From: Dehalococcoidia bacterium
Lineage (GTDB): Bacteria; Chloroflexota; Dehalococcoidia; Lucifugimonadales; Australimonadaceae
Assembly: GCA_034423175.1 (NCBI GenBank)
Contig: DAOUJA010000057.1
Coordinates: 2,800-66,799 of the forward strand
Direction: 5' to 3'
Length of the DNA stretch: 64,000 bases
Position numbers and translations under genes: made by a program
Notes under the pieces: generated by a model
Seen by the model: the letters and a program-made list of their open reading frames with translations, nothing else
The model's database searches: none
Told to the model about the DNA's origin: nothing
Shown: in pieces, positions 24,413 through 44,149 of the stretch
Position numbering within the stretch: the stretch's first letter is position 1
How the letters are laid out: every line of letters starts with the position of its first letter

Positions 24413-25159
24413 CTAAGGCGGAGCGTCTCCTTCATCGCGGGCAATCCGCTGGCCCCGGAACCAGGCGAGGACCGTCAGGGCGAGCAGTAGGGCCGCGCCG
24501 CCTCCTACCACCGCCACGGCCACGGACGACCCGTCCAGCAGGCCGTCGTACCTCGCCAGAACCGCCGCAACCGCCACCATGAGGCCGGCCACCAGCAAGC
24601 CGGCAACGATGAGTCCGGCGAGCATGAGGCCCTCGTGCCGGAGGACCAGCCGTCTCTCGCCGGGGTCCACCCCCTGCGACTCCATGAGGCGTCCCTGCCG
24701 CATGATCCCCGTGATGCGATGCACGGCGATGAGGCCGACCAGGCACGCGACGAAGAGCGCCGCGTCCAGGTAGACGGAGCGGTCATCCACCAGCCCCTCC
24801 TGGAACTCGAGCAGTTCATGCCATCCGATGCGGTTGTGCGACCAGGCCGGAAAGGCGTGAGGCACGGAAACCGCGAACGCGACGAGCCAGAAGGCTATGC
24901 GGTCGCGACCGAGGGCCTGAAGCACCCGGTACGCGGCAAGACCCGCACCCGCCACAACCACCGGCTGCCACGGGACGAAGCGCAGGAGCAGCTCGTCCGC
25001 TCTCTCCACCCACGAGGTCACTCCCACGTTCAGGATGAAGCCTGTGTCCCACAGCACGTAGACGGCGAGCAGCAGCAGGGCGGCAATGACCGCCGACTCC
25101 ACGGCGGCGAACCACGCGCTTCCGTCGCGCCGGTCCGGTCTACCGATAGGTCTCAACAT
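24413..25159 (-). CDS. hypothetical membrane protein, last gene of the MoxR/DUF58 operon
   Basis: Start moved to MLRPIGRP (CAT at 25157-25159). It overlaps the DUF58 stop by 20 nt. About 6 hydrophobic segments. Confidence 0.5.
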   Translation of the reverse strand: MLRPIGRPDRRDGSAWFAAVESAVIAALLLLAVYVLWDTGFILNVGVTSWVERADELLLRFVPWQPVVVAGAGLAAYRVLQALGRDRIAFWLVAFAVSVPHAFPAWSHNRIGWHELLEFQEGLVDDRSVYLDAALFVACLVGLIAVHRITGIMRQGRLMESQGVDPGERRLVLRHEGLMLAGLIVAGLLVAGLMVAVAAVLARYDGLLDGSSVAVAVVGGGAALLLALTVLAWFRGQRIARDEGDAPP

Positions 25160-26471
25160 GCCGCACCAACACCGACGTGAACTCCTCCCGAGAAGGCTCC
25201 CACTCGATGACCGACGCACCCGCGTCACGAAGGTCCCTGGCGACCAACCGCGTTTCCCACGCGGTCAGCCCCAGTCCCTGCGTCGTGTCCCGGGACCCGT
25301 GCGGGGCCACGTGCACCACCCGGACCGGGTTGTTCCGCCCGGGGAGCGTTCCGAGCGACGCAAGACGCGTGACCGCCGTCTTGAAGCGGTCGAAGGAGCC
25401 CGCGGCCTCCCCGGGCCTTGCGTAGTGGACGTCCAACCGCGTGATGACGTAGACGGCCGGGTCCAGCCGGAGGAGGAAGCTCTTGCATCGTTCCACGGCC
25501 TGCAGGAGGTCTTCCTCGGGCGGGCCCGGTCTGAGGCCGGCCAGCATCTGTATGAGGCGGTTGAACTGGCGCTTCCCGGACTCGGGCGTCAGCAACTCGC
25601 CCCTGCCGTCGTAGCTGTTGTAGGCATAGGCGCCGAGCGTGGAGCCCTGGGCGAGGTAGTACTGCGCCAGGGTGCCGGATGCCTCCACCGTGTTCTCCAA
25701 CGGATTGGACAACGGGACGCCCACGTCCATGTAGTCCGCCATGTCCAGGAAGATCCAGACCCCTTTCTTCGCCTCCGGCTCCACATCGTTGACCAGCGGG
25801 AGGTTGTCCGCCCTCACCCCCCTCGCACTGGCCTTCCAGTTGATCCGCTTGAACGGGTCTCCCGGCTGGTAGGGCCGCAGCTCCCGGAACTCGTCCGTGG
25901 CCGCTCCCGTCCTGGAAAGGTCTCCGAGGTACCGCCCGTGCCTGGTCACGGCGCGGACCGCGTTCAGACGGGTGATGCTACGAATGCGGGGCACCACGGA
26001 GACCTGGTACGCGGAGCCGGATGAACCGGCCGTGCCCCGGTTGACGCCGAAGGGGGCGCGCGATTCCCAAGCGGTCTCCCGCAAGGCGAACTGCCCCCGC
26101 TTCGAGAACTGCACGCGGTATGAGACGTCAGCGGAGCGGCCCCCCGGCCACTTCCACACCACGCGCAGGTTGCTTCCGCTCACCACCCGGGCCTCCGGCG
26201 GCAGATCGTCGTGCACGAAGATGGCGCCGATGCCGCCGCGGGCCGTCAGCCGGCGCTCCACGGTGAGCGTGTCGCCGACCCAGCACGCGACCTTCGCCAG
26301 GCTTCGGGTCACGACTATGCCGGACGGCGGGGGAAGAGCGGTCGACAGGAGGGCCGAGACGAGGAGGAAGACCGCGCCGACCAGCAGGACGAGGTTGCCC
26401 AGGACGAACCCCGCCACCAGGATGACGAGGGAGACGGCAACCCAGCTCAGTTGCGACGGCTGTTGCTTCAC
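25140..26471 (-). CDS. DUF58 (vWA-like) protein
   Basis: FRELRPYQPGDPFKRINWKASAR...VWIFLDMADYM signature with an N-terminal TM hairpin. Likely GTG start at 26471, 14 nt after the moxR stop. The track start at 26531 would overlap moxR by 47 nt. Confidence 0.8.
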   Translation of the reverse strand: MKQQPSQLSWVAVSLVILVAGFVLGNLVLLVGAVFLLVSALLSTALPPPSGIVVTRSLAKVACWVGDTLTVERRLTARGGIGAIFVHDDLPPEARVVSGSNLRVVWKWPGGRSADVSYRVQFSKRGQFALRETAWESRAPFGVNRGTAGSSGSAYQVSVVPRIRSITRLNAVRAVTRHGRYLGDLSRTGAATDEFRELRPYQPGDPFKRINWKASARGVRADNLPLVNDVEPEAKKGVWIFLDMADYMDVGVPLSNPLENTVEASGTLAQYYLAQGSTLGAYAYNSYDGRGELLTPESGKRQFNRLIQMLAGLRPGPPEEDLLQAVERCKSFLLRLDPAVYVITRLDVHYARPGEAAGSFDRFKTAVTRLASLGTLPGRNNPVRVVHVAPHGSRDTTQGLGLTAWETRLVARDLRDAGASVIEWEPSREEFTSVLVRHVETYR

Positions 26472-26484
26472 TCCAACACCTATC

Positions 26485-27459
26485 TCACCCGGCCTCGCCG
26501 GGCACGGGCACCTGCGACAGGACCTCCTCAACGACGAGGCCGCCCTGAACGCCCTCCAGCGTGTCCTCGATGTTCAGGATGATGCGGTGGGTGAGCACGT
26601 CCGAGACGAGCATCTTGACGTCGTCCGGAACGACGAAGTCCCTGCCGTGGACGAGGGCCATAGCGCGCGAGGCCCTGAGCAGGGCCAGGCCTCCCCTCGG
26701 ACTGACGCCCACCGCCACCCTGGCGTGTTCGCGGGAGAGCCTGACCAGCTGCGTGATGTAGTCCACGATGAGCCGGTCCGTGTAGACGCCGGTCTCCACG
26801 AAGCGCTGCAACTCCACGAAGCGGCGCACGTCCACCGCCGGCTGTATGTCCGCGGTGGGGTCGTCCTTCTGCCAGTGGATGCGCCTCAGCAGGATGTCGT
26901 TCTCCAGGGCCGCATTGGCGGGATATCCCGCCGAGAGCTTCAGCAGGAAGCGGTCCAGCTGGGCCTCCGGAAGCGGATACGTGCCCTCCTGTTCGATGGG
27001 GTTCTGCGTGGCGATGACCACGAAGGGGAGCTCGAGGCGCCGCGTCACGCCGTCGATAGTGACCTGCCGCTCCTCCATGGCCTCCAGGAGCGCGGACTGG
27101 GTCTTCGGCGGGGCCCGGTTGATCTCATCGGCCAGGAGCACGTTGGTGAACACGGGGCCGGGCATCATCTGGAACGTCGAGTCCTTCTGCCTCCAGACGT
27201 TCATCCCCAGGATGTCCGACGGGAGCAGGTCCGGCGTGAACTGGACGCGCTTGGTGTCTCCGCCTATGGCCCGCGCGAAGACCTTTGCGAGGAGCGTCTT
27301 CCCCAGGCCGGGGAAGTCCTCGAAGAGCACGTGACCGTTCGCCAGGGCCGCCGCGAGGAGCTTGCGGAGCAGGAGGCGATTGCCAACGAACACCTCGGCC
27401 ACGCGGTCAATGATCTGTTCGCAGGACAGGCGAGCCTGCTCCAGTTCTTTCTCATTCAT
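26485..27459 (-). CDS. MoxR-family AAA+ ATPase
   Basis: LFEDFPGLGKTLLAKVFA (Walker A), VLLADEINRAPPKTQSALLEAMEERQVT (Walker B / sensor), ATQNPIEQEGTYPLPEAQLDRF. Confidence 0.9.
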   Translation of the reverse strand: MNEKELEQARLSCEQIIDRVAEVFVGNRLLLRKLLAAALANGHVLFEDFPGLGKTLLAKVFARAIGGDTKRVQFTPDLLPSDILGMNVWRQKDSTFQMMPGPVFTNVLLADEINRAPPKTQSALLEAMEERQVTIDGVTRRLELPFVVIATQNPIEQEGTYPLPEAQLDRFLLKLSAGYPANAALENDILLRRIHWQKDDPTADIQPAVDVRRFVELQRFVETGVYTDRLIVDYITQLVRLSREHARVAVGVSPRGGLALLRASRAMALVHGRDFVVPDDVKMLVSDVLTHRIILNIEDTLEGVQGGLVVEEVLSQVPVPGEAG

Positions 27460-27566: not shown

Positions 27567-30062
27567 TCACTGAAGGCTCCCCTCGTGTCCGAGCGCCGGC
27601 CCACGCGACGGGGCAGGCCCCGACGGCACCGGGGCCTCGAAGATCGACGCGACCGCCTCGTCGACCAGGTCCTGGCGGCGCAGCGCGGCGCCAACCCTCG
27701 TGTTGGACCTGCTCCGCCACCGGGTGAGCCACTCCAGGAAGGGGTCCGCGGTGTCCAGCAGCGAGAACCAGCGGTCTACGGCTTCTTCAGGGCGGTCCCC
27801 ACGCTGGCAGTGGGCGACGATGAGGGCCACGGCCAGCGGCTCCGGGTCCGTTCCTCTCTGTACGTACGACGCCCCCGCCCTCCGCACGTCGTCCTGACGC
27901 ATGCGTTCGAGTTGCGGTGCAGAGGAGGCCAGCGCCCAGCCCGCCGCATCCAGGGCATGTTCCAGCGCAGCGGTCCTCGCCGCCGTCCTCCGTTTCCTGC
28001 CCAGAACGTTCCACGCCAGGGGCGTGACGGCTCCACGGCGGAGGGACCGGCAGACCGCCGCCATGGCATCCGCGGAAACGTCACTTCGGTAGAGCAGCCC
28101 CAGCAGGTACACCCACAGGGGCCGCCAATCGCCGTGGTCCACGAACCGGCGCCGCATGGCGTCGGTCAGCGCGGCGCGCGGGTCCGCCTTGCTTTCGAGC
28201 ACCTGCCGGTGGTGGGACCAGTCGGCCCAACCCGGTCCCGGAGCTTCGCGGGCACCGGCGACGACGCGCAGCCTGTTGACGACGTTCATGAGCACCGCCA
28301 GCAGCAGGACGAGGAGCGCGGTGTACTCGTAAAGAGCGGCAAGCCACAGCATCTCGTAGACGACGGGACGCAGCAGCAACACGTAGAAGGCCAGGGCGGC
28401 ACCGAACGTGAAGCCCCGCACCTGAGAGGCAGCGAGCCATCCGGCGACGTCGGCCACCGCCGGGTTGGAAGAAGAGGAGGCGTACGGGGCCAACCGGGTC
28501 AGCGCCAGGGAGAACATGCCCGCCGTGGCAACGGCACCGCCGAAGGTGAAGCCATGTCCGAACGAGGACAGGCCGGAGGCCGTGAGCCAGGTGAGACATC
28601 CCACGGCAAAGTAGCTCACGGCGGAGAGGATGGGCCGGTAGCGCAGGAAGGGCTGCCCGCTCAGGACCCTGGGCAGGAGGACCATCGCGGTTGCAGCGAA
28701 CGACAACCACGCGATGGAGTACCGGGCTTCGTGGAACCCTCCCAGGAAAGGCAGCAGGTCCTCCCCGAGTCCTGTCGTTCCGGGGCGGTCCAGGAGCACG
28801 GCATTGGCCGCCGGAAGGTGAGCGAGGGCAGCCCCGACGACGACGGCCAGGCCCGCGGCCACGGCCAGGGCGCCCAGCACCCTCGATGCGTTCGCCGTCA
28901 GCAAGGCATACCGCTGCGGGACGTCGAGCGTCGCCACGTTCCGCAGCACCGTCGCCGCGTAGGAAAGGAGAACCGCGGCGAGGAGCGCAGTGAGCATCCC
29001 GGAGACGTCGACCCCGAACGCCGTCGAGAGCAGGCCGCTGCCGGAGAAGACGACGTACACGACAGCCAGCGCCGCGAGGCGCCCGATGGGGGTCCCCAGA
29101 ATGCGGGCGACGCCGGGCCGGAGCACCCCCCAGTAGTGGACGAGTGCGAAGGGAAGCAGCACGGCCAGTACCTGCACAACCGACGGGGAGTAGAGCACCG
29201 CCAGGTACGATGGGTCCACGGAGCCCGGGCCCACCGCGCCAGGGCCTACGGACGCGCTCTCCGCGGCGAGGGCCAGCACCGCAATGGCTATCCACAGCGC
29301 AACAATCCATGCAGCCTCGGTCACGAGGAGCGCCCTGCGGAGGCGGGGCACGCGCGCAGGCGGGCCGACTACCAGGGCGCGCCGAATGACCGAGGCTGCG
29401 TACGACAACCCCACCGCGAGGCCAACAGCCAGCAATGCCCAAGCCCCGCTCAAGGCGAAGGCGGCAGAGAGCGCACCATCGACCCCCAGCAGGGCATAGG
29501 CAGCGCCGAAGGCCGCCAGGTGCACACGCGGGAAGCCGACAACCGCGGCTACGCTCGGGCGGACTTCCGCAACCGCCCGAGCTGCGATGAACGGGGCCAG
29601 GAGCAGGATGCCCCAGGCCGCGAGCGAGTCGAAGCCGCGCAGGTAGGGCGACAGGGAAGCGACATCCGGGACCCACGGAAGACCAGACACCAGAGCCGGC
29701 AGGTCCGATGCGCCCGACAGCAAGCCCAAGCCCAGCGCCGTCCAGCCCAGGTCCGTCAGCAGCCGATGAGCGACGGGAAGCACTTCCGCGAGAGGCAGCA
29801 GGCGCACTCCCCCTCTGCCGACCCGCACCCTCAGGGTTACCCGTTCCGCGAACTCACTTCCGCGCATCCACAGGGCCAGCCTGCCCAAGGCCAGCAAGAG
29901 CCCGCACAGCGCCACCGGCAGAGCCATGAAGCTCAAGTCCAGCCGCAACAACCGGGAGAGCGGGCTGTCCGCACCCCACAGCAGCACAAGCGCCACCAGA
30001 GCGCCGCCTGCCAACAGTGCGGCGGCCAGGTCCGGGCGCCGGACGAGCACAGCGTTCCTCAT
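27567..30062 (-). CDS. 831-aa polytopic membrane protein with ~250-aa soluble C-terminal domain, family unknown
   Basis: Start moved to MRNAVLV. Its ATG (30062-30060) overlaps the giant gene's TGA (30061-30059) as ATGA. The first ~570 aa carry roughly 16-20 hydrophobic segments, followed by an Arg/Ala-rich helical tail. Confidence 0.6.
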   Translation of the reverse strand: MRNAVLVRRPDLAAALLAGGALVALVLLWGADSPLSRLLRLDLSFMALPVALCGLLLALGRLALWMRGSEFAERVTLRVRVGRGGVRLLPLAEVLPVAHRLLTDLGWTALGLGLLSGASDLPALVSGLPWVPDVASLSPYLRGFDSLAAWGILLLAPFIAARAVAEVRPSVAAVVGFPRVHLAAFGAAYALLGVDGALSAAFALSGAWALLAVGLAVGLSYAASVIRRALVVGPPARVPRLRRALLVTEAAWIVALWIAIAVLALAAESASVGPGAVGPGSVDPSYLAVLYSPSVVQVLAVLLPFALVHYWGVLRPGVARILGTPIGRLAALAVVYVVFSGSGLLSTAFGVDVSGMLTALLAAVLLSYAATVLRNVATLDVPQRYALLTANASRVLGALAVAAGLAVVVGAALAHLPAANAVLLDRPGTTGLGEDLLPFLGGFHEARYSIAWLSFAATAMVLLPRVLSGQPFLRYRPILSAVSYFAVGCLTWLTASGLSSFGHGFTFGGAVATAGMFSLALTRLAPYASSSSNPAVADVAGWLAASQVRGFTFGAALAFYVLLLRPVVYEMLWLAALYEYTALLVLLLAVLMNVVNRLRVVAGAREAPGPGWADWSHHRQVLESKADPRAALTDAMRRRFVDHGDWRPLWVYLLGLLYRSDVSADAMAAVCRSLRRGAVTPLAWNVLGRKRRTAARTAALEHALDAAGWALASSAPQLERMRQDDVRRAGASYVQRGTDPEPLAVALIVAHCQRGDRPEEAVDRWFSLLDTADPFLEWLTRWRSRSNTRVGAALRRQDLVDEAVASIFEAPVPSGPAPSRGPALGHEGSLQ

Positions 30063-33000
30063 CTGCCGGCCTCCATCACCGCACTCCATGCCCGGTACAT
30101 CGCCTCGTAGTGCCGGCGCGCGATCGGGTGCTCGCTGTAGTCCGCCTCCTCGAACCTGGAGATGAGTTCGTCGAGCGCCTTCTGGGGGACCGGGAGCCCC
30201 CGGGACACCAGGATGAGCTCCACTTCCCGCGGCGTGGAGCGTTCCGTCACACCCCCGGTCGTCTCCTTCGCCCACTCCCAGAAGAGGTTGTACAAGCGAA
30301 CGATCTCCTCCCGGAAGTCCACTACCCGAAGGATTCGAGACTCGGAGGAGGGAAGGTAGTCGTAGTCGCCGGCGAACTCCGCGGACACCGGATACTCACC
30401 GGGCTCCGCACCGGTCCAGCCGAAGGTGTAGGCCCCGTCGTTGCCAACGACCGCGAGTTGCGACGGAGCATCGCCGGCAACAGCCACCTCGACTATGGCC
30501 CCGGCAACGGCACGCCCCTCCTCGTCGCTCACGTTCACGGTGATGCGCACCTCTTCCCCAACCCCCCAGACGTCCGCCAGGTCTTCCGCCTCCTTCCGGA
30601 ACGCGATCCACAACAGGACCGGCCGGGGCGCCGGGCCCGCATCGTCCTCGAGGCCCGTACCTTGGTCAGCCGCGTCAGGACCCGCGGCCGGCCCGGCCTC
30701 CGCACGCCTCCAACGCGCGAGCACCGCCAGCGGCCTCACCCTGAACCTCCTGCCGGAGTATGCGGCGGCAGCGGCCACGGCAAGGAGACCGGGGATGCCC
30801 GCCCAAAGGAGCCAGTTGATCCCGGCGGGCGTGATCGCGCCCTCCCAGAAGTACGGCGTGCCGAGCGGAGCGTGCAGGTCGTCCCCGGCATAGGTGAATT
30901 CCACGAAGCTGCCGTGGAGGGCCTCCTCGGCCGGCACCGCAAGCTCCAGCATCGCCACCCCGGACTCGTCGGTGGTGGCGTCCACCCCCTGGCTCGATCG
31001 CACGGCCGCCAGCGGTATACCGGTCCCGGTGTCGTCCAGGAGCGCCACCTGGAGCAACGTCATGCCGCCGGGGCGCACCCTGCCCACCGGGGTCACGATG
31101 AGGTTGGCAGCGGACCTGACCACCAGCGTTGCCGTGGCGCCGGCATCCAACGCCGGGGCGTCGATGACGAGTTCGGCGGTCCCCAGCGGTCCATCCCCCG
31201 GCACCGGGTACGTCTGCACGAAGGCGCCAACGTCGTTGGACCTGAACACGAGGTCGGGACCGACGTTCAGTTCGGCGCCGGGCACGGGATGAGTCCCCAG
31301 CAGGACGGTCCCGCGGAGGACCGCCCCGGCGCCGCGCACAACGGGTGCCAGCGGTTCCACCAGGACCCGGGGAAGCCCGACCGCAACGTCCAGCGTGGCA
31401 CGGCTGGAGGCCAGTTGCTCCGTATCGTCGAAGACCACCTCGACGCTCATGGCGGACTCATGCGGACCGCGCGCGGAACCCTCGTCGAAGACTGCCCGGG
31501 CGTCCCACGCGAACCTGCCTTCAGCATCGGTCGTCAGAGAGAGGGGCTCACTGCCGACCACGCGCACTTCGGCGTTCGAGACCGGGCTTCCGCCACTCTC
31601 ACGCAGGATGCCCGTGAGCCGGAAGCCCTCGCCATCCCTCACGACGACGGGGCCGTCGAGCGCCAGGACGGTGGGCTCCAGCACCTCGAAAGCGGCCTCG
31701 GCGGAGGCCGGACGGACGAACTCTCCCCCGTCGAAGCGGCCCGTGAGCGTATGGGGGCCTGTGCTTCCGAAGGACGGATGCCGGTATCGAAACGTCCCAT
31801 CCTCACCGACGTTCACCGTGACAAGCTGCTCAACTCCGGCGGCCTCTATGGTCAGCTCCACGGCGCCGGTCGGCGAGAGCGTATCCGACGTAAGCGCGCC
31901 CTCGAACGTCGCTCCATCGCCGCGCTTCAGCCTGAGCGGCCCCTCCAGCGTCAGAGCTACGGCGTGGAGGGCTTCGGCGCGAGCCGTTGCGCTGGAAGCG
32001 AGCACCGAGCCCTCGCCCCGGTACGCGGCGTTGACGGTGAACTGCCCGGGACTCGACATCATCCCGGCGACCTCGAACCAGCCTTCCGCGTCCGTGTTGA
32101 CCGACTGCTCGGGGTTGCGGCCAACTCTCACGCCGAGAGGCTTCCCCGCGAGAGGACTCCCGTCGGCCCCGCGAAGGACACCCGCCACAGGGAACTCCTC
32201 ACCTATCACCACGGAATCGGGGGCGTAGACCATAACCTCGGTGGGCAGGACGACCTCGAAATCCAAGCGGGCGGTGTTATCCAGCAGGAACTCCTCCCCC
32301 CGAATCTCCACCTCCACCCAGTGTCGTCCAAGCCGCGAGAAGGACTCGGAGAACGTAAACCGGCCCGACGAGTCAGTCACCACAGAAGCCGTGGCGTCTC
32401 CGTCGAACGTTACTGCGAGCTCGCGCGAAACCACTCCCCGTCCGGAGTCTTCGATCAGCATACCCTGGAACACGGCTACAGCGTTCCGGACTACTTCCGC
32501 CGGGCCACTGAGCTCGATCCTGTTTCCGGAGAAGACCTTGATGTCAGGGTCGCTCCAGGACTCATTGAACCGGTCGTTCCCGACGGCGCGGGCCAGGAGC
32601 TGGTAGCCGCCCAGTTCCAGATCCGCGGGCAGTTGCACCTCGGCCCGGAAGCGCCCCGCACCGGACGTGGTCGTCCCGATAATCGTGCCGCCGTGGTCCT
32701 TGGTCTCGTTGACGTAGATCTCGACCGTCATACCGCTGACGTTCTGTCCGTCGACGGTGCGCACCGTTCCTCCCACCACGAACGGCGTCTGACGACGGAC
32801 CTCCGCGGGCCAGAGGGTGATGTCCGTTACGGTGTCAACGAGGGAAGGCGGCGCCACGCCACCGCTCTCGTCGATACCCCTGACGACGGGGATGGGCCTG
32901 ACCGCAGGCGGAATGTCCGTCACCCTTGACGGGGCTCCGCCGGACGCAGTGGGGTCAAAACGCACCCAACCGATGCCCTCCAGCCCGACCTCTGCCCATT

Positions 33001-36000
33001 GATGCGCCTGGTTCGAGTAGACGACGATCGCTTCGGCAGAGGGGGAGGTGACCCATCCCGAGACGATCCTGGCGGGTATGCCCACGGACCGGGCCATCAC
33101 GACGAATGCGCTGCTGAACTGCCCGCACGTTCCCTGGCGCGTGTCGAAGAGGAACCAGTCCACCGGATCGCGTCCCGAGGGCGCAATGCCCGCGGCGAAG
33201 TTGTCTGCGTACCTGTAGGCGTAGCGCGTTTGCAGGTACCGTTCCAGCGCCTCAGCCTTCGCATACGGAGAGTTGTGGGGACGCGTGATCTCCTCAGCCA
33301 GCTGCGCGATCCGGTCAGGGAGGCCCGGAGGCAACCGGGTATAGATGGTGTCGGCGACGGCAGCGGCGGCCTGGTACTGCTGGAGCGAGTAGAACAGGAC
33401 ATCAGAGGTCCAAAGATACCGGGCTCCCGGACTTGGGGAACGAAACGTGGCGCTGAAGGGATAGTAGAACCCGTCGAGATCGACGTCCTGCAGGTCGAGG
33501 GACGTGGGCAATACTCCGAAGGGCAATTCGTCGAACACGCCGTGGGAGCTCAACTGGACCCGGTCGGAGAAGGCGGTATGCGGGTTGCTCCGGAACCCGA
33601 AGAGCGACGGGAAGGCCTGCCTTTCAGAGGGGAGCGCGCCGAAGGCCCCCGTGGCATCATCGTAGACGGCGGCTGTGGCAGCCAAGACACTGCTTCCGGC
33701 CGCGTACGGGACCTCTACGGGGTCCAGTTGGCTCCAGCCGCCGTCCGCGTATACGTCTCCCGTAGAGGTCCGCAGATAACTGGTGTGAGCGGCGCCCTGC
33801 ACCGTGAAGACCGGGATACGCGGCGGCTGTGCAATCTGGCGGGTTGTCGTTCCCTCGGTGGAGAGACCACCCCCGGAATGCATGATGAGCGCCGCTCCGT
33901 TCTCCAACCGGGTCACACCGGCCCCGAGCTCCTCGAGAGCACCGAGCGCGGCGTCCCTGGCCGCCTCGTCTCCCTGCCCAAGCGAGGCGAGTCCCGACGC
34001 CGACAACAACTCTCCCAAGCCCGTGCCGCTCCCCTCTCCACCTGTGCCCGTGCCATCCCCCTGCCCGCCCGTGCCGGCGCCGCCCTCCAGTCCGGTTGTG
34101 TCTGCGCCCAGTCTCTCCAGGGCTTCCCGCGCAGCATCCCGGACATCCGCAGCGGGATCGGCCAAGGCCCTCGTCAAGGCGGGTATCGCCCCGGTAAGCC
34201 CCCGCTCCCCCATGAGCTGGGCTGCCGCAGCCCTCTGGGACGGGTCCGCTGCGTCTTCGAGGGCCGACAGGAGGGCATCGAAGTCCCATCCGGCCAGGCC
34301 CTCCGCTGCCGCGTTCCTGACGTCAGGCGATCCGTCATCGGAACGGGCGTCGAGCAGCGCTCTCAGCGCTGCGCCGTCCCCGATCTCAGCCAAGGCCAAG
34401 GCCGCCGCCGTCCTGACATAGGCGGACTCATCCGTAGCCAAGGCTCTCAGCAATGCTTCCAACGCCATGGTGTGGGAGTACTTTCGCTCCCCCATGAGCT
34501 GAGCAGCCGCGGCTCTCTGGAGCGGGCTCACCGCGGTCTCGAGGACCAGGACCAGTGCGTGGGAGTCCCACCTGGTCAGGGCCTCCTCCGCCGCGGCCCT
34601 GACTTCAGCCGATGCGTCGTCGGCCCGGGCGTCCAGCAGCGGCAGCAGGGCGACGTTGTTCCTGATCTCCCCCAAGGCCAGTGCGACTTCCGCTCGAACC
34701 AGTGAGACGGGGTCAGAACCGAGAACGGGGACCATCTCCGACGCGGCCGCCGGGTACCTTCGCTCCCCCATGAGCCGGGCCGCCACGGCCCGCTGCTCCG
34801 CGTCCCCGGCATTCAGGAGGACGTTCAGCAAGGCGGCGAAGTCCCACCCTTCCAAGGCCTCATCCGCCGCCGTCCTGACGTCAGCCGATGCGTCGTCGGA
34901 CCGAGCGCGCACCAGCGGCAGCAGGGCGAGGTCGTTCCTGATCGCGCCCAAGGCGAGCGCAACTTCGGCGCGCACCTCCGGGGCGGGGTCCGAGACGAGG
35001 ACGGGCACCATCCTTTCCGCCGTCCAATCGGTCTCGAGAGCGCCCAGAGCCCGGGCCGCGGCCTCCCGGACGGCGGCGTCCGAGTCTGCTTCCAGCGCCC
35101 GCAGCAGCGGCCCTTCAGCCTTGTCCTTCCCCAGGGCGGCCAGCGCATCGATAGCCTCCACCCTGACCCGGGCGTCCTCATCCGAAACCAAGGCCTGTAT
35201 CAGGGCGTCCACCGCCTCAGGGTCGGCGAGCACTCTCAACCCGAAGGCCGCCGAGGCCCTCATGAGGGGGTCTTCATGGTCCAGCAGGACCCCGATGGGC
35301 CAGTCGAGGGCCAGCACGCTCAGAGCAGCCTGCGCAGCGCGGCGGGCACCAGGTTCCAGGGCGTTGTCTATCTCCTTGAACAGCAGGCGCAGCGCCTCCG
35401 GGTCGTTCAGATCGACCCTGAGCGCAGCCACCGCGCCCCGTACCTGCGGCGCAGCACTGGCGGCCAGTTCGTCGAGCGCGGTCTCCAGCGGATGGTTGAC
35501 GTCCGTGTCCGTGAAGGCGTCCCTGGGCAAGGGGTCGACGGTGACCCAACCGAGGCCGTCCAGGGCGATCTCCGCCCACTGGTGGGCCTGGTTCCTACGG
35601 ACCGTTTGTGTTTCCTCCCGCCTCGCTACGACCCAACCGGACACGGCCCTGGCCGGGACCCCGGCCGCCCGGGCGAGCACCACGAACGCGCTGCTGAAGT
35701 TGCTGCCAGCGCCCACGCCGTGGTCGAAGAGGAACCAGTCGACCGGATCCCGGCCCGGAGGCGGCCGGGTCTCCTCTTCCGTGCTTGCGACGCCGACGGA
35801 GTACTCCTCCTGGAGGTGTACCTGCAGCAGGCGGGCCTTCAGGTATGGAGAGGCGACAGCGGCGACCCGCTCAGCCAGCTCATGGACACGCGGCGACAGG
35901 CCATCCGGCAGCTGCAGATACGTCCCGTCCGCCACCGGAGGCGCGTCAATCTTCTGCCCCAGCGCGAAGAGCGGAAGGGTGGACTCCGTCCGATAGGCGG

Positions 36001-37120
36001 ACACCCTATCGTCAGCTGCCAGGGTCTGGCTGAAGGGGAAGTAGGTCGCGGTAGTGTCGATGCTGTGCAGGTTCGCGGGTACCGGGAGCACGCCCGCCGC
36101 GAGCGAGTCCGCCCCTTCGATGGGCGAGACCACGACGTGGTCGACGAATTCGTGGAGCGGAGCTGCCGTCGGCAGATGGAGCTGCCCAGCCAGAGGCGCC
36201 AACGCATCAGGAACAGAGGCGTTCCCTTCCAGCGTAACGGCGGCGGGGTCCAACTGGCCCCACGTTCCTTCAGTGTACGCGTCGCCCGTGGAAGTCCTGA
36301 GATACCTGGTGTGGACAGCGCCCGTCACGCGGAAAACCGGAGCGTCGCCGGGTAGAAGAGGCTGCAACGCCGTGATCTCCGACAGCAGAGACGTGTCCGC
36401 GGGCACGTTGGCGGCGGTCGTTGCCGATGCCGCCGGCTGCGCGGTCGACGCTCCCCCCGCCTGGCGGAGGCCATCAACAACCGCCGCGAACCCGGCGGGG
36501 ACCTCCAGGAGATGGGTGCGGGGAAAGAGGAGCAGCCCATCGATGGGCTCGGTGTCCAGGAAGCCGAAGACGCCCGCGGCGGCCAGCCAGACCACGAGCG
36601 CAAGCGCCAGCAGTCTCCAGTTGAGTATCCCGGCGATGGCGACAGAAAGGAAGAACGCCGCCAGGAGGACCAAGCTCTCCGGCTCCAGGTAGATGCGCTG
36701 CACCATGTGCTCGTCGTAGGAGACCGAACTGCCCAGCGTGCCGGAGAAGGCGAGGTACGCTCCGGCCACGATCAGGGCAAGCGCAGCGAGCACGCCCATC
36801 GCGAGGGACCACGAAGGTCGGAGGGAAGCCCTTCCCAGCGGCCATGGGACGGAGACCACCATAGCGGCGGCCGCAAGGACGATGGCGACGGGCAGTACGA
36901 GGAACTCGAGCAGGCCGACACCACTGGGTACGCCGAAGGTCCTCTCCTGGGAGGACGCGGCAGCCAGTATGTCGCGGGGGCCCGTGGACACCAAGGCGAC
37001 GACGAACTCGAGCACCAGGAAGAAGCCTGCCAGTGCGGCGAGCAGCAGGAGGAGGAGACTGGCTTGACGCGCGGGGCCACTGACCAGCGGCCCCGCCGGC
37101 ATTGCGGTCAAACTACGCAT
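30059..37120 (-). CDS. giant (2353 aa) TgpA-like transglutaminase-family membrane protein
   Basis: Domain layout in window coordinates. N-terminal ~5 TM helices (36551-37063). Transglutaminase-like module 1, DPVDWFLFDHGVGAGSNFSSAF...NQAHQWAE...GWVTVDP (35528-36349). HEAT-like repeats (34106-35323). Gly/Thr linker. Module 2, DPVDWFLFDTRQGTCGQFSSAF...NQAHQWAE...GWVRFDP (32948-33823). About 7 beta-sandwich repeats (30851-32833). TM helix INWLLWAGIPGLLAVAAAAAY (30755-30829). An 8th beta-sandwich, then a DUF4129-like tail ...STPREVELIL...FEEADYSEHP... Confidence 0.85.
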   Translation of the reverse strand: MRSLTAMPAGPLVSGPARQASLLLLLLAALAGFFLVLEFVVALVSTGPRDILAAASSQERTFGVPSGVGLLEFLVLPVAIVLAAAAMVVSVPWPLGRASLRPSWSLAMGVLAALALIVAGAYLAFSGTLGSSVSYDEHMVQRIYLEPESLVLLAAFFLSVAIAGILNWRLLALALVVWLAAAGVFGFLDTEPIDGLLLFPRTHLLEVPAGFAAVVDGLRQAGGASTAQPAASATTAANVPADTSLLSEITALQPLLPGDAPVFRVTGAVHTRYLRTSTGDAYTEGTWGQLDPAAVTLEGNASVPDALAPLAGQLHLPTAAPLHEFVDHVVVSPIEGADSLAAGVLPVPANLHSIDTTATYFPFSQTLAADDRVSAYRTESTLPLFALGQKIDAPPVADGTYLQLPDGLSPRVHELAERVAAVASPYLKARLLQVHLQEEYSVGVASTEEETRPPPGRDPVDWFLFDHGVGAGSNFSSAFVVLARAAGVPARAVSGWVVARREETQTVRRNQAHQWAEIALDGLGWVTVDPLPRDAFTDTDVNHPLETALDELAASAAPQVRGAVAALRVDLNDPEALRLLFKEIDNALEPGARRAAQAALSVLALDWPIGVLLDHEDPLMRASAAFGLRVLADPEAVDALIQALVSDEDARVRVEAIDALAALGKDKAEGPLLRALEADSDAAVREAAARALGALETDWTAERMVPVLVSDPAPEVRAEVALALGAIRNDLALLPLVRARSDDASADVRTAADEALEGWDFAALLNVLLNAGDAEQRAVAARLMGERRYPAAASEMVPVLGSDPVSLVRAEVALALGEIRNNVALLPLLDARADDASAEVRAAAEEALTRWDSHALVLVLETAVSPLQRAAAAQLMGERKYSHTMALEALLRALATDESAYVRTAAALALAEIGDGAALRALLDARSDDGSPDVRNAAAEGLAGWDFDALLSALEDAADPSQRAAAAQLMGERGLTGAIPALTRALADPAADVRDAAREALERLGADTTGLEGGAGTGGQGDGTGTGGEGSGTGLGELLSASGLASLGQGDEAARDAALGALEELGAGVTRLENGAALIMHSGGGLSTEGTTTRQIAQPPRIPVFTVQGAAHTSYLRTSTGDVYADGGWSQLDPVEVPYAAGSSVLAATAAVYDDATGAFGALPSERQAFPSLFGFRSNPHTAFSDRVQLSSHGVFDELPFGVLPTSLDLQDVDLDGFYYPFSATFRSPSPGARYLWTSDVLFYSLQQYQAAAAVADTIYTRLPPGLPDRIAQLAEEITRPHNSPYAKAEALERYLQTRYAYRYADNFAAGIAPSGRDPVDWFLFDTRQGTCGQFSSAFVVMARSVGIPARIVSGWVTSPSAEAIVVYSNQAHQWAEVGLEGIGWVRFDPTASGGAPSRVTDIPPAVRPIPVVRGIDESGGVAPPSLVDTVTDITLWPAEVRRQTPFVVGGTVRTVDGQNVSGMTVEIYVNETKDHGGTIIGTTTSGAGRFRAEVQLPADLELGGYQLLARAVGNDRFNESWSDPDIKVFSGNRIELSGPAEVVRNAVAVFQGMLIEDSGRGVVSRELAVTFDGDATASVVTDSSGRFTFSESFSRLGRHWVEVEIRGEEFLLDNTARLDFEVVLPTEVMVYAPDSVVIGEEFPVAGVLRGADGSPLAGKPLGVRVGRNPEQSVNTDAEGWFEVAGMMSSPGQFTVNAAYRGEGSVLASSATARAEALHAVALTLEGPLRLKRGDGATFEGALTSDTLSPTGAVELTIEAAGVEQLVTVNVGEDGTFRYRHPSFGSTGPHTLTGRFDGGEFVRPASAEAAFEVLEPTVLALDGPVVVRDGEGFRLTGILRESGGSPVSNAEVRVVGSEPLSLTTDAEGRFAWDARAVFDEGSARGPHESAMSVEVVFDDTEQLASSRATLDVAVGLPRVLVEPLAPVVRGAGAVLRGTVLLGTHPVPGAELNVGPDLVFRSNDVGAFVQTYPVPGDGPLGTAELVIDAPALDAGATATLVVRSAANLIVTPVGRVRPGGMTLLQVALLDDTGTGIPLAAVRSSQGVDATTDESGVAMLELAVPAEEALHGSFVEFTYAGDDLHAPLGTPYFWEGAITPAGINWLLWAGIPGLLAVAAAAAYSGRRFRVRPLAVLARWRRAEAGPAAGPDAADQGTGLEDDAGPAPRPVLLWIAFRKEAEDLADVWGVGEEVRITVNVSDEEGRAVAGAIVEVAVAGDAPSQLAVVGNDGAYTFGWTGAEPGEYPVSAEFAGDYDYLPSSESRILRVVDFREEIVRLYNLFWEWAKETTGGVTERSTPREVELILVSRGLPVPQKALDELISRFEEADYSEHPIARRHYEAMYRAWSAVMEAGR
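34181..35011 (-). repeat. three tandem ~276-nt (92-aa) coding super-repeats of HEAT-like units
   Basis: Giant-protein aa 704-795, 796-888 and 889-980 align end to end (MVPVL.SDP...VRAEVALALG.IRN..ALLPL..AR.DDASA.VR.AA.EAL..WD...L...L......QRA.AA.LMGER). Identical DNA strings such as cagccgatgcgtcgtcgg recur near 34610 and 34880. Confidence 0.7.
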
Positions 37121-37206: not shown

Positions 37207-38367
37207 CTATGCGTCCCTGGCGGAGGTGGGGCCGACTTCACCCTTGCAGTAGGAGATGAAGGCCTTCATGCGGCAGGTGACGCCGTTCTTGTCCAGCTCT
37301 CCCTCGAAGATCTCGTGGATCCTGGGGTCCTCGTCCTGGTATTCGATCTGGTAGCCGCCCTCCTTGAAGCTCTGGTCCGCGCCCTGACCGCGGGGGACGG
37401 CTGCGCGCAGGCCGTGGGTGCCGGGCGTGAGCGCCATGTAGCGCGCCCGCCGGGTGCCGGAGTTGAAGTGCTGGTGGTAGGTGCCGTCGCTCGGCACGAT
37501 GACGAGCGAGCCAACCTTCCAGTCGGCCTTGCGGATGTCGGACATGTCGTCCTTGGTCCACAGGAGCGAGAAGCCGGCGTCTCCGCTGAGGAGCACGAGG
37601 TTGGCGCCGGGGCCGTGGCGGTGCGCCTTCTTGTAAGTGCCGACGGGGAACTCGGAGATGTGGGCCTTGGAGAGGTTGCCGGCCATCTCGAACATGGAGT
37701 TGATGCCGCCCGCTCCGCGCTCGTTCCATGCGTAGAGGGCCATGTCCGGAGCGTTGGGCATGAAGTTGGACGCCCAGATGCGGCGGGTGTAGAGCTTGCC
37801 GTTGCCGCTGAAGAAGTCGTCCTCGCCGCTGTAGCGGCTGGAGAACGGGTAGTCGCACTGGAAGATGAAGTCGTTGTCGGAGAAGAGGCGCATGTTCGCC
37901 GGAGCGGTCGTGACGGAGAGGTAGCGGGCGGGCTCAGAGCCGCTGCCGTTGAAGTGCTGGTACCAGCAGTTGAGGGGGATGGAGAAGAGGCTTCCCTTCT
38001 TCCACTCGAACGTCTTCTTGTCCTCGCTGCCCTGCGGCCAGATGCTGGTCGCGCCGCGGCCGGAGACGATGTAGACGTACTCCTCGTAGACGTGGTGCTC
38101 GGGCTCCGAACTGCCGCCGGGGTCGATCTCGACGATGTGGGTGTCGTTGGTGAGGACGTGGTAGGGGATGTTGATGACGGCGCCCTTCCCGCCCTTGCGT
38201 TCCCACGGGCCGAGCTCGACGTTGGCGATGTCGTCGAAGGCGTAGTCGACGATGACCTTCACGCCCTCGGCCTTGAGCCAGTCGGCATAGGGGTCCGGTA
38301 TGGCGAAGTCCTCGAGTCCGTCGGGTGTCGGCGCGTACTTGATCGCCGCATCTGCGTCGGTGGTCAT
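37207..38367 (-). CDS. bicupin protein, gentisate-dioxygenase-like (paralog 1 of 3)
   Basis: N-cupin GGSSEPEHHVYEEYVYIVSGRGAT and C-cupin YKKAHRHGPGANLVLLSG...YHQHFN. C-terminal IEYQDEDPRIHEIFEGEL is shared with the paralogs at 45801..46919 and 54428..55525. The family assignment is tentative. Confidence 0.65.
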   Translation of the reverse strand: MTTDADAAIKYAPTPDGLEDFAIPDPYADWLKAEGVKVIVDYAFDDIANVELGPWERKGGKGAVINIPYHVLTNDTHIVEIDPGGSSEPEHHVYEEYVYIVSGRGATSIWPQGSEDKKTFEWKKGSLFSIPLNCWYQHFNGSGSEPARYLSVTTAPANMRLFSDNDFIFQCDYPFSSRYSGEDDFFSGNGKLYTRRIWASNFMPNAPDMALYAWNERGAGGINSMFEMAGNLSKAHISEFPVGTYKKAHRHGPGANLVLLSGDAGFSLLWTKDDMSDIRKADWKVGSLVIVPSDGTYHQHFNSGTRRARYMALTPGTHGLRAAVPRGQGADQSFKEGGYQIEYQDEDPRIHEIFEGELDKNGVTCRMKAFISYCKGEVGPTSARDA

Positions 38368-39999: not shown

Positions 40000-40249
40000 C
40001 GCCGTCCTAGAACCCGTCGCACGCACCTTCCTAGAAGCCCAGTCCGAGGAGCACCAGCAGCAGCTCAACGCCGGGGTTGACCAAGTGATGGCCAACCCCT
40101 ACGAGGACGGCCGCTCCAAGGTCGCCATAGGATTCCCGTTCCGCTACGACAGCATCTGCTATGCCACCTAGGACTTCCTGATCGCGTACTACTTCGAGAA
40201 CGCGGCGGTGGTCACGGTCTACGCCATAGTGCCGCGACTGAAGGGCTAG
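39971..40249 (+). pseudogene. ParE/RelE-like toxin interrupted by an in-frame TAG
   Basis: The frame reads ...NPYEDGRSKVAIGFPFRYDSICYAT*DFLIAYYFENAAVVTVYAIVPRLKG*. The TAG at 40169-40171 splits a typical ...Y.I.Y.......V.V..I..R toxin C-terminus. Confidence 0.45.
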
Positions 40250-42492: not shown

Positions 42493-42977
42493 CGGCCCGC
42501 CTCCGACGCTTCGTGGACAGCCTCCACGATCTTCTTGTAGCCGGTGCAGCGGCATACGTTGCCGCGCATGTAGTCCTTGATCGCCTCCTCGGAAGGCGAG
42601 GGATCGGCATCGAGCAGGGACTTCGCGGCGAGGAGCATGCCCGGCGTGCAGAAGCCGCACTGGAACGCCGCATTGTTCACGAACGCCTCGATGAGCGGAG
42701 ACGAACCCTCGTCCGCCGCGAACCCCTCCACCGTGAGCACGGCCCTACCCCGCGCTTCGAACGCAGGGACGGTGCAGGAACTGACGGGCGCGCCATCCAA
42801 CAACACCGTGCACGCGCCGCAGACCTGCACGTCGCACGAGCGCTTCGTGCCCGTGAGGCCGAAGCGCTCGCGCAGGAGGTCGATGAGCGGCATCTGCGGC
42901 TCGACCGCGGCCTCGACCGGCGCACCGTTCAGTTGGAATGCGACCGCCATCGTGTCCTGCGCCTCAGGCATCGGCAT
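42489..42977 (-). CDS. (2Fe-2S)-binding small subunit (CoxS-like)
   Basis: KRSCDVQVCGACTVLLDG and QCGFCTPGM...CRCTGY motifs. Start ambiguous among 42977, 42971 and 42950. Confidence 0.85.
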   Translation of the reverse strand: MPMPEAQDTMAVAFQLNGAPVEAAVEPQMPLIDLLRERFGLTGTKRSCDVQVCGACTVLLDGAPVSSCTVPAFEARGRAVLTVEGFAADEGSSPLIEAFVNNAAFQCGFCTPGMLLAAKSLLDADPSPSEEAIKDYMRGNVCRCTGYKKIVEAVHEASEAGR

Positions 42978-43848
42978 CTCCTCCTCCGTTCCGGGCCAGC
43001 GCGCGCAGCAGGGTGCGCTCCATGAAGACGCGCACGAGGTGCTCCTTGTAGTCGACGGCGCCGTGCATGTCCTCGACGGCGTCAGCGTCCCCGGATGCCA
43101 GGCGGGACGCCTCACGCAAGGCCGCCGCTCCTTCGGTGAGCGTGTCGACGCGCTCGCCGCGCAGCACGTCCTCCGAGCGCGGGAGCCGCCGGGCCACCGG
43201 CGATACGCAGCCGAGCGCGAGGCGGGCGTCGGTGACGACGCCATCCTCCACCGCGAGCGCGGCGGCGATGCCAAGGGTCGGGCGGTGGTGGTAGCCGAAC
43301 TTGGAGTAGGCGGCACGCACGCCCGCCTGGAAGGCAGGGACGCGCACGGCGGTCAGTAGCTCGTCGGGCGCGAGCGACGTCTCGTACGAGCCAGTCTGCA
43401 GGTCGCCGACGGCGATGCGCCGCGCGCCGGAGGGGCCCGCGACGTCAAGCTCCGCCCCGTAGACCAACAGGAGCGTCGCGGGGTCGGAGTGCGGTTCGGC
43501 GAAACAGAGGTTGCCCGCGAGGGTGCCGACGTTCCGCACGCGCAGGTTGGCCACGCCGTGCTCTACCTCCGAGAACAGGGGCAATCGTTCGCGCACGAGC
43601 GGGTCGTGCTCGACGGCGCTGTGCGTCGCGCTCGCGCCGATGACGACGGCGTCGCCGTCGACTGCAATGGCGTCGAGTCCGGGGATGCTCTTCACGTTGA
43701 TGAGCGTGTCATAGGCAAGCAGGCCGGACTTCATGGCGAGCAGGAGCTCGGTGCCTCCGGCGTAGAGCGCGGCAGCGCCGCCAGCGTCGGCGAGGGCGGA
43801 CGCGGCCTCGTGCACGGTGGCGGGCTCGTGCAAGCTGAAGGGCTTCAT
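42964..43848 (-). CDS. FAD-binding medium subunit (CoxM-like)
   Basis: MKPFSLHEPATVHEA...LYAGGTELLLAMK...VRNVGTLAGNL. Confidence 0.8.
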   Translation of the reverse strand: MKPFSLHEPATVHEAASALADAGGAAALYAGGTELLLAMKSGLLAYDTLINVKSIPGLDAIAVDGDAVVIGASATHSAVEHDPLVRERLPLFSEVEHGVANLRVRNVGTLAGNLCFAEPHSDPATLLLVYGAELDVAGPSGARRIAVGDLQTGSYETSLAPDELLTAVRVPAFQAGVRAAYSKFGYHHRPTLGIAAALAVEDGVVTDARLALGCVSPVARRLPRSEDVLRGERVDTLTEGAAALREASRLASGDADAVEDMHGAVDYKEHLVRVFMERTLLRALARNGGGDADA

Positions 43849-44149
43849 GGCGCAGGCGATGCTATCCGCAGGAACGGCAGGGGGCAAGCGTCAGCCCCAA
43901 TAGTCAGGGTTGTCCCAGCCCACATAATGCACCAGCACTGTCGTGGCGCTCGCAATGCTGTACACGATGAAGAAGCCGCTGGCTTTACAGCCGATACTGC
44001 CGAAGCGGTACGGCAGAGGCAAGGGTATCCTGGTGCGCCGATCAGGATGCGGAGACTCCAGAATGCTGTGCACCACCGTCATCGCGCGGCCATAGTCTCA
44101 CGGCGTCAGACTGTCCAAGAAGTCTCTTGCGCGTTGTTCGAACTCCGCT

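Follow-up and report, generated by a model that had tools for sequence, protein, structure and literature searches.

A giant TgpA-type membrane protein of a Dehalococcoidia bacterium with one intact transglutaminase triad and a conserved module lacking the nucleophile

Introduction

Transglutaminases of the TgpA type occur very widely, together with their MoxR-DUF58 partners; one of them has been reported to be essential in Pseudomonas aeruginosa, and their cellular role is unexplained. In P. aeruginosa, the gene of TgpA (PA2873) is clustered with those of MoxR (PA2875) and of a DUF58 protein (PA2874) (PMC3507681). The length of TgpA is given as 668-688 amino acids (aa), both figures being found in the same source; the protein has five transmembrane (TM) helices within its first 180 aa, a periplasmic domain extending from aa 180 to aa 544, with support from trypsin shaving, followed by the sixth TM helix (PMC3507681). 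Here we describe a giant TgpA-like protein encoded by a stretch of 64,000 nucleotides (nt) from a Dehalococcoidia bacterium (assembly GCA_034423175.1, contig DAOUJA010000057.1, positions 2,800 to 66,799), hereafter called the window. In this protein the transglutaminase module is present twice and the first copy is devoid of the catalytic cysteine.

Transglutaminase-like proteins without activity exist, as exemplified by band 4.2 of erythrocytes. In addition, the transglutaminase-like domains of Rad4/XPC, Cyk3 and CC2D2A/MKS6 have the fold without the catalytic Cys, and they are thought to bind peptides or other ligands (PMC3495828). Operons combining MoxR, vWA and transglutaminase genes are very common and unexplained (PMC3495828). 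In bifidobacteria, the PFNA operon has the order pkb2-fn3-aaa-duf58-tgm (PMC8430577). The actinobacterial Esr clusters combine the transglutaminase EsrD with EsrA, a surface protein with immunoglobulin (Ig) repeats and, in an actinobacterial MoxR/vWA cluster, deletion of EsrD releases an Ig-repeat surface protein (bioRxiv 10.64898/2026.09.08.750141).

Results

Two copies of a TgpA-type ectodomain and a single intact triad

The minus strand of the window contains, from 37120 to 30059, a single stop-free open reading frame (ORF) whose translation is a protein of 2,353 aa (Table 1). An earlier note, written from the sequence of the window, had described in this protein two modules of about 290 aa sharing long strings, the first having lost its catalytic Cys. 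We found all these strings (PVF.V.GA.HT.YLRTSTGD.Y, GRDPVDWFLFD, FSSAFVV.AR..G.PAR.VSGWV, NQAHQWAE and GW...DP) and, when aa 231-560 were compared with aa 1071-1420 by BLASTP, the two modules gave a single alignment with 127 identities over 299 positions (42%, E 4e-64). The positions given at that time are exact: 32948 is the end of aa 1391, 36349 the end of aa 258, and the codons of Cys1332 and Gly472 are at 33127-33125 and 35707-35705, respectively. Both modules are recognised by the Pfam family Transglut_core (PF01841), module 1 scoring 71.9 bits and module 2 scoring 101 bits against a cut-off of 23 bits. NCBIfam has no specific family for either of them and gave only generic HEAT and lyase matches below threshold.

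The Cys-His-Asp/Glu triad is complete in module 2, in which Cys1332, His1373 and Asp1389 align by phmmer to the corresponding triad residues of TgpA (6g49; E 2.5e-15). It is incomplete in module 1, in which Gly472 is found together with His513 and Asp529. Gly472 occupies the nucleophile site in three independent alignments, namely the pairwise BLASTP, a hidden Markov model (HMM) of 372 modules and phmmer to 6g49, where FLFDHGVGAGSNF is aligned over FLFDTRSGFCAHY; in none of them is there an insertion or a deletion between the conserved Gly470 and Phe475-Ser476. The triad states proposed in the earlier note are therefore those that we observe. We also considered that another residue of module 1, such as a nearby Cys or Ser, could be its nucleophile, a possibility that the same note had raised against itself. 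It was rejected, as the site is filled by Gly472 in these gap-free alignments, and Ser473 follows at position +1. In the model of module 1, Ser473 opens a predicted helix comprising residues 228-241.

Cys1332 is the sole cysteine among the 2,353 aa of the protein. Judging from the residues present, thiol chemistry, that is, transamidation, deamidation or isopeptide cleavage via a thioester, would be possible in module 2 only.

The fold of each module was predicted with AlphaFold2, using an alignment of first modules (A1) for module 1 and an alignment of Cys-bearing later modules (A2) for module 2. The model of module 1 has a predicted local distance difference test score (pLDDT) of 91.1 and a predicted template modelling score (pTM) of 0.90, and that of module 2 has values of 80.6 and 0.84. 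With Foldseek, the best matches in the PDB are in both cases the structures of TgpA: 6g4h and 6g49 for module 1 (E 3e-17, template modelling score 0.61-0.66, 296 columns), 6g49 and 6g4h for module 2 (E 2.5e-12, template modelling score 0.53-0.62). The Foldseek matches of the two modules to these structures span 291-325 aligned columns, which is the full module length, so that each module is a complete TgpA ectodomain, composed of a β subdomain of about 180 aa at the N-terminus followed by the core. The duplication of a transglutaminase module was thus correctly recognised in the earlier note, the duplicated unit being larger than the core and comprising the entire periplasmic domain of TgpA. 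A pseudo-enzyme is defined by the loss of a catalytic residue and the maintenance of the fold, and this is what is found for module 1 (Gly472, pLDDT 91, TgpA fold).

We favour, with a probability of about 0.6, the reading that the giant protein is a multi-module TgpA-type membrane transglutaminase with one thiol centre and one conserved non-catalytic module having a binding or scaffold role.

The first module is without cysteine in most homologues

A search of a collection of 5.8 billion proteins gave 176 matches, and the best 120 of them were analysed. Each of these 120 homologues has a length of 2,000-3,800 aa and the same domain set, with two modules in 13 proteins, three in 82 and four in 25, which makes 372 modules in total. 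We observed that Cys is absent from the first module in 110 of the 120 proteins. The nucleophile site of this module is occupied by Ser in 73 of them, Ala in 15, Cys in 10, His in 7, Gly in 5, Val in 3, Thr in 2, Tyr in 2 and Asp, Asn or Pro in one each, while His is retained in 114 first modules and Asp/Glu in 117. The last modules contain Cys in 107 cases and His in all 120; among the middle modules, 91 have Cys, 37 Ser and 4 Ala. When one genome per species was taken, the same trend was obtained, with patterns such as SCC, ACC, SC, DSCC and HSCC. The loss of Cys in module 1 is therefore conserved and not a recent change, in line with the orthologue check that had been proposed for it. In most close orthologues, the catalytic Cys is the only cysteine, and over the 120 homologues cysteine represents 0.14% of the residues, 208 of the 449 cysteines being at catalytic positions. 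A further observation concerns the third position of the triad, which is Asp in 95% of the Cys-less first modules versus Glu in 84% of the Cys-bearing later ones; module 2 of the window (Asp1389) belongs to the Asp-bearing minority of the latter.

We then compared the modules with one another. Among the 60 nearest neighbours of module 1 of the window, 57 are first modules, and the neighbours of module 2 are later modules only; this grouping indicates that the duplication is older than the divergence of the sampled homologues. A recent duplication at the DNA level was also considered and rejected, since the identity between the two modules is no more than 42-44%, compared with 58-79% between orthologous modules, and Tandem Repeats Finder yields just a 27-nt repeat located in the linker.

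By parsimony, the nucleophile site has changed at least 26 times in first modules and 4 times in last modules, these counts being obtained on a rough neighbour-joining distance tree of these same first and last modules. This tree was rooted on the clade in which all the modules have Cys, so that the Cys state at its root follows from the rooting and is no independent result. The difference between the two counts shows that the nucleophile site of module 1 is free of catalytic constraint, unlike its surroundings. Indeed, 45 columns, including HQWAE and DP, show a conservation of 90% or more and carry the same residue in the Cys-less first modules as in the Cys-bearing later ones. In addition, the core of module 1 is 78% identical to that of ten two-module orthologues, a value equal to that of the TM region, whereas the identity to the same ten proteins is 70% for the core of module 2 and 56% for its N-terminal subdomain. 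Module 1 thus appears to be under purifying selection, with the fold, the His, the Asp and most of the groove residues intact.

The disappearance of the nucleophile and the rarity of Gly at its site (5 of 120 first modules) could also mean that module 1 is a decaying relic, inactivated by a recent mutation or by an assembly error. However, the frame is intact over 2,353 aa, module 1 folds at a pLDDT of 91, its core is, together with the N-terminal TM region, among the two best-conserved regions of the protein, and the Cys-less state is common to 110 of the 120 homologues, which come from independent assemblies. We regard this explanation as having almost no chance of being right. Since 110 of the 120 first modules are without Cys and the core is at least as conserved as the catalytic core of module 2 among close orthologues, the Cys-less first module would rather be a long-standing pseudo-enzyme module, resulting from an old functional divergence and not from a strain-specific mutation.

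The codons at the site give an indication of the path that was followed. In the closest orthologues the sequence is GGC ACC AGC GGC AAC (G-T-S-G-N, in GTSGNFSS), compared with GGC GCT GGC AGC AAC (G-A-G-S-N) in the window; the Ser and Gly codons have been exchanged by two point changes, from AGC-GGC to GGC-AGC, and the GS order is also found in the homologue L016. The path was an old change of Cys to Ser, later followed by a change of Ser to Gly in the lineage of the window, the ancestral Cys being deduced from its presence in TgpA and in the wider superfamily. Consequently, of the Cys to Gly replacement proposed in the earlier note, the loss of Cys is retained and the direct step is not, as the closest orthologues carry Ser.

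Arguments against a catalytic and non-catalytic pair, and alternative readings

Several observations weigh against the reading that we favour. Firstly, the stronger conservation of module 1 holds among close orthologues only: family-wide, the mean identity is 45% for first modules versus 52% for last modules. Secondly, residues 215-244 of the module 2 model (m01d7806db13e) have a pLDDT below 50, and the model of the presumed active copy is thus poorly defined right before its Cys. This segment, …GRDPVDWFLFDTRQGT, corresponds to aa ~1301-1330 of the protein (window ~33131-33220) and directly precedes the catalytic residue; its counterpart in module 1 has a confident, partly helical model. The low values could stem from the shallower alignment or from a truly mobile lid.

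Thirdly, Ser is the commonest replacement of Cys while His and Asp are kept, which leaves a Ser-His-Asp reading open for the orthologues. In this alternative, module 1 would be an enzyme with a serine nucleophile, a peptidase or an acyltransferase acting beside the thiol module, with a Ser-His-Asp triad in the orthologues and Ser473 in the window protein. Besides the 73 first modules with Ser, it is supported by the persistence of a Ser one position later in the window protein, the same swap from SG to GS being found in L016, and by the proposal that Ser-containing transglutaminase-like domains could be serine peptidases (PMC3495828). However, at least 26 changes at the site and the acceptance there of Ala, Gly, Val, Pro, His, Asp, Asn, Tyr and Thr would be intolerable for a required nucleophile. 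In the window, the residue is Gly, and Ser473, at position +1 and at the start of a predicted helix, is unlikely to be placed like the Cys. Moreover, His and Asp are kept also where later modules carry Ala, so that their retention is no sign of catalysis. A serine enzyme is in our opinion improbable.

Finally, the catalytic Cys is missing from every module in eight of the 120 homologues. These eight are full-length proteins with 50-64% identity; four of them are Ser-Ser-Ser (P0015, P0017, P0024 and P0040), and the other four carry Ala in their later modules (AAA twice, NAA and PAA; P0045, P0052, P0053 and P0057). The Cys-free three-module subclade is represented by the loci L008, L012, L014, L017 and L018, in which His and Asp are still present. 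The existence of these eight proteins indicates that the active partner module is not essential and that catalysis may rank behind a structural role. In these lineages the protein would function without thiol chemistry, which makes it more likely that the role of the family is largely one of structure or binding. A module without nucleophile standing beside one with a complete triad, the pattern described in the earlier note, is what we see in the window protein, but it is not a fixed pair, the number of modules varying from two to four and eight of the 120 proteins being Cys-free.

According to the corresponding alternative, the whole protein would be mainly a structural or adhesive scaffold, its modules serving to bind or anchor, and catalysis by module 2 would be accessory, for example for a one-off covalent attachment of the protein itself, or of a partner, to the envelope. 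In addition to the full-length Cys-free homologues, this alternative agrees with the fact that about half of the giant protein (~1,160 aa) consists of non-catalytic HEAT and Ig-like/β-sandwich repeats. An anchoring role is also suggested by the release of an Ig-repeat surface protein upon loss of EsrD (bioRxiv 10.64898/2026.09.08.750141), and peptide binding is the role attributed to those transglutaminase-like domains that are inactive (PMC3495828). Against it, the last-module Cys is present in 107 of the 120 homologues, with about 4 losses, and most close orthologues have no other cysteine, which argues for a strong selection on the thiol in most lineages. We consider a mainly structural scaffold rather unlikely, although clearly more plausible than a serine enzyme.

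Domain layout and predicted topology

The positions of the features are collected in Table 1.

Table 1. Features of the giant gene and of the genes downstream of it, in window positions
Feature	Positions	Strand	Evidence
Giant TgpA-like membrane protein, 2,353 aa	30059..37120	-	single ORF; Pfam Transglut_core x2, HEAT_2 x5, Big_1/Big_3_5/CarboxypepD_reg, DUF4129
Five N-terminal TM helices, aa 23-188 (predicted)	36557..37054	-	hydropathy scan
Module 1, aa 250-531, TgpA-type ectodomain without nucleophile	35528..36373	-	Transglut_core, AlphaFold2, Foldseek
Gly472 (GGC), nucleophile site of module 1, in GAGSNFSS (starts aa 470)	35705..35707	-	three alignments
Ser473 (AGC), position +1 to the nucleophile site of module 1	35702..35704	-	
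His513 (35582-35584) and Asp529 (35534-35536), kept in module 1	35534..35584	-	
HEAT-repeat solenoid, ~aa 540-1009	34094..35503	-	HEAT_2 190 bits in 5 stretches; HEAT, HEAT_EZ, HEAT_PBS
Gly/Thr-rich linker GLEGGAGTGGQGDGTGTGGEGSGTG, aa 1010-1034	34019..34093	-	translation; Tandem Repeats Finder
Module 2, aa 1092-1391, TgpA-type ectodomain, intact Cys-His-Asp triad	32948..33847	-	Transglut_core, phmmer, AlphaFold2, Foldseek
Cys1332 (TGC), nucleophile of module 2, in GTCGQFSS (starts aa 1330)	33125..33127	-	alignment to TgpA
His1373 and Asp1389, triad partners in module 2	33002-33004 and 32954-32956	-	alignment to TgpA
Ig-like / MG2 / CarboxypepD_reg β-sandwich region, aa 1400-2055	30956..32923	-	Pfam CarboxypepD_reg 68 bits, Big_3_5, Big_1, MG2, MG4
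Sixth TM helix, aa 2101-2122 (predicted)	30755..30820	-	hydropathy scan; GRRFRVRP directly after
Predicted cytoplasmic tail, aa 2123-2353: one Ig-like domain and DUF4129	30062..30754	-	Pfam
831-aa polytopic membrane protein, no family match	27567..30062	-	directly downstream of the giant gene
MoxR-family AAA+ ATPase, 331 aa	26485..27480	-	Pfam AAA_3 215 bits, AAA_lid_2, bpMoxR
DUF58 protein; true start probably near 26480	25140..26531	-	Pfam DUF58 49.8 bits
Small protein, ~220-270 aa, N-terminal hydrophobic segment, start uncertain	24413..25228	-	ORF list; last conserved cluster gene

In the hydropathy scan, the N-terminal helices are at aa 23-41, 73-91, 106-124, 145-163 and 170-188, and no further hydrophobic stretch was detected between aa 188 and aa 2101. 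The N-terminus contains two Lys/Arg and no Asp/Glu, and the loop following the fifth helix is acidic. Past the sixth helix, the basic residues of GRRFRVRP point to a cytoplasmic C-terminus. In the tail, Pfam recognises DUF4129 (PF13559) at aa 2277-2345 (window 30086-30292) with 27.4 bits for a cut-off of 24.8, and the Ig-like domain matches Big_3_5 with 35.0 bits, slightly below the cut-off of 35.5. For the first 200 aa, comprising the N-terminal TM region, no Pfam match of any kind, DUF3488 included, was obtained, even with E values up to 1. The predicted topology is thus a cytoplasmic N-terminus, five TM helices, an extracytoplasmic loop of ~1,900 aa, a sixth TM helix and a tail on the cytoplasmic side with the Ig-like domain and DUF4129.

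The two modules are separated by 568 aa, in which Pfam finds five HEAT_2 matches, and the HEAT repeats and the Gly/Thr-rich linker are those announced in the earlier note. The 27-nt repeat of the linker extends over 34019-34075. Within the HEAT region, we also noticed three direct repeats of ~280 nt (34196-35012), which have 64-76% nucleotide identity and encode units of ~93 aa, suggesting that the solenoid expanded through tandem duplication of blocks of several repeats.

Gene cluster and distribution

The giant gene is followed on the same strand by four genes (Table 1). The ATG of the gene for the 831-aa membrane protein, at 30062, overlaps the TGA stop codon of the giant gene, an arrangement of translational coupling; this protein has no match in Pfam, NCBIfam or PADLOC. 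We observed the same gene order in L001, the locus of a 72%-identical orthologue, and in L002, that of a distant relative whose modules all have Cys. Between the giant gene and MoxR, the equivalent of the 831-aa gene encodes a protein of 816 aa in L001 or is split into genes for 349 and 430 aa in L002. In both loci a small gene without Pfam match comes after DUF58 (220 aa and 231 aa, respectively). In the window, the sole match of the small protein (24413..25228) is a weak, sub-threshold one to the Rv2743c family. NCBIfam offers no specific family for the DUF58 protein or for the small protein, and its matches to the AAA+ ATPase are generic and below threshold.

A known anti-phage defence system was considered for this cluster and rejected, as PADLOC gave only a weak HEAT-ARM match and none for the other four genes. 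Outside of the cluster, a cupin-domain protein is encoded upstream of the giant gene (37207-38367, minus strand), followed further upstream by a molybdopterin set of the xanthine-dehydrogenase/CO-dehydrogenase type, with MoCoBD, 2Fe-2S and FAD-binding subunits (40246-43887, minus strand). These genes are not next to the giant gene in L001 or L002 and appear unrelated to the transglutaminase cluster. In L001 (OZ242210.1), a gene annotated as encoding 7,175 aa starts within 24655-27107 and runs off the locus. It is located downstream of the giant orthologue, at a distance of ~7.5 kb, past a methyltransferase and a MarR regulator, and no counterpart of it was seen in the window.

Of the 70 genome loci, 68 bear the label of a Chloroflexota or Dehalococcoidia metagenome-assembled genome (MAG). 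The labels of the other two are Candidatus Poriferisodalis and Candidatus Aldehydirespirator, both assigned to the Acidimicrobiia (Actinomycetota) in the NCBI taxonomy. Both of these genomes fall within the Cys-free subclade, and they could represent a cross-phylum transfer or mislabelled MAGs. Some of the isolate names, SB0664_bin_11, RHO1_bin_8 and APA_bin_2, resemble what we take to be names of sponge-microbiome bins.

When 1.84 billion cluster representatives were searched with a profile, 2,042 proteins were obtained at E values up to 1e-30, the multi-module giants ranking first. Cys-less copies are also found in distant proteins with tandem modules (P0256, P0196, P0243, P0191 and P0171). 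P0256 has four modules alternating as S-C-S-C, the triads are degenerate in the six modules of P0171 (2,678 aa), and many proteins of ~1,250 aa have two Cys-bearing modules. These distant proteins suggest that multiplication and inactivation of the transglutaminase domain are recurrent. The few homologues whose records bear a name are called only "HEAT repeat domain-containing protein", and full-text literature searches (transglutaminase with HEAT repeat and Chloroflexi or sponge; DUF4129, DUF3488 and DUF58) returned no description of this family or of its architecture.

Discussion

Module 1 is most likely a non-catalytic module, and the analogy with inactive transglutaminase-like domains suggests a role in substrate binding. 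It is nearest to the N-terminal TM bundle, and it could hold or recognise a peptide ligand or a substrate for the catalytic copy or, alternatively, maintain the ancestral contact between ectodomain and TM bundle. Module 2 would catalyse transamidation, deamidation or isopeptide cleavage on proteins of the envelope or on partner proteins. The HEAT and Ig-like regions would supply reach and interaction surface, with an Ig-like stalk after module 2, and the DUF4129 tail would provide a link to the cytoplasmic MoxR-DUF58 pair. In this mechanism the giant protein would cooperate with the presumably co-transcribed 831-aa membrane protein, the MoxR ATPase and the DUF58 protein, and by comparison with other clusters of MoxR, DUF58 and transglutaminase such joint work is probable.

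A bolder proposal, which we put forward as a conjecture with the odds against it, is that these proteins represent an undescribed class of cell-surface machines of Dehalococcoidia, and possibly of Acidimicrobiia, several of them being sponge-derived. Their ectodomain would have been multiplied and specialised by position: the first, non-catalytic module would act as a "reader" of a peptide or envelope ligand, the later thiol modules would be "writers" that cross-link or trim, and the DUF4129 tail would couple them to MoxR-DUF58. If this is true, an enzyme and a pseudo-enzyme would form a relay inside one polypeptide, assembling or sensing a proteinaceous envelope. The family can also be considered as a natural experiment, in which two to four copies of the ectodomain per protein, a loss of the nucleophile that depends on position and has varied repeatedly, and lineages devoid of any thiol separate binding from catalysis. 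Finally, our analysis gives a functional label to one of the largest genes in many marine and sponge-associated Dehalococcoidia genomes.

Comparison with known systems

A DUF4129 tail is usual for TgpA-type proteins. The window protein shares with TgpA, as far as its predicted topology is concerned, the five TM helices, the outward transglutaminase domain, the sixth TM helix and the cytoplasmic tail. Its module 2 matches the Cys-His-Asp of TgpA residue for residue, both modules have the fold of the TgpA ectodomain, and genes for MoxR and DUF58 are present in the cluster, downstream on the same strand in the window. On the other hand, TgpA has one ectodomain whereas two are found here and up to four in the relatives, one of the two being without nucleophile. 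The window protein, with its 2,353 aa, is much longer, its loop containing in addition a HEAT solenoid of ~470 aa and ~650 aa of Ig-like domains. Its TM region has no DUF3488 match, and the sequence identity to TgpA is ~21-22% in the Foldseek alignments. The gene order also differs from the MoxR-DUF58-tgpA order of the P. aeruginosa operon, since in the window the giant gene is followed by an extra gene, that of the 831-aa membrane protein, then by MoxR and DUF58.

The likeness to the PFNA and Esr clusters lies in their make-up: a gene for a membrane transglutaminase adjoins MoxR and DUF58 or vWA genes, together with a repeat-rich surface protein. In those clusters the FN3 or Ig-repeat protein is encoded by a separate gene, whereas the Ig-like and HEAT repeats are here fused to the transglutaminase. 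Moreover, unlike in the PFNA and Esr clusters, no kinase or FHA gene was found among the scanned cluster genes of the window.

As in the eukaryotic inactive domains, the papain-like fold of module 1 is found without the catalytic Cys. Those are single domains in unrelated proteins, whereas module 1 is a 42%-identical paralogue of an active copy located in the same chain; it keeps the His and the Asp, is extracellular according to the predicted topology, and its inactivity is tied to the first position. We class the giant protein among the membrane transglutaminases of the TgpA type that are encoded in a cluster with MoxR and DUF58, and not as a new kind of system.

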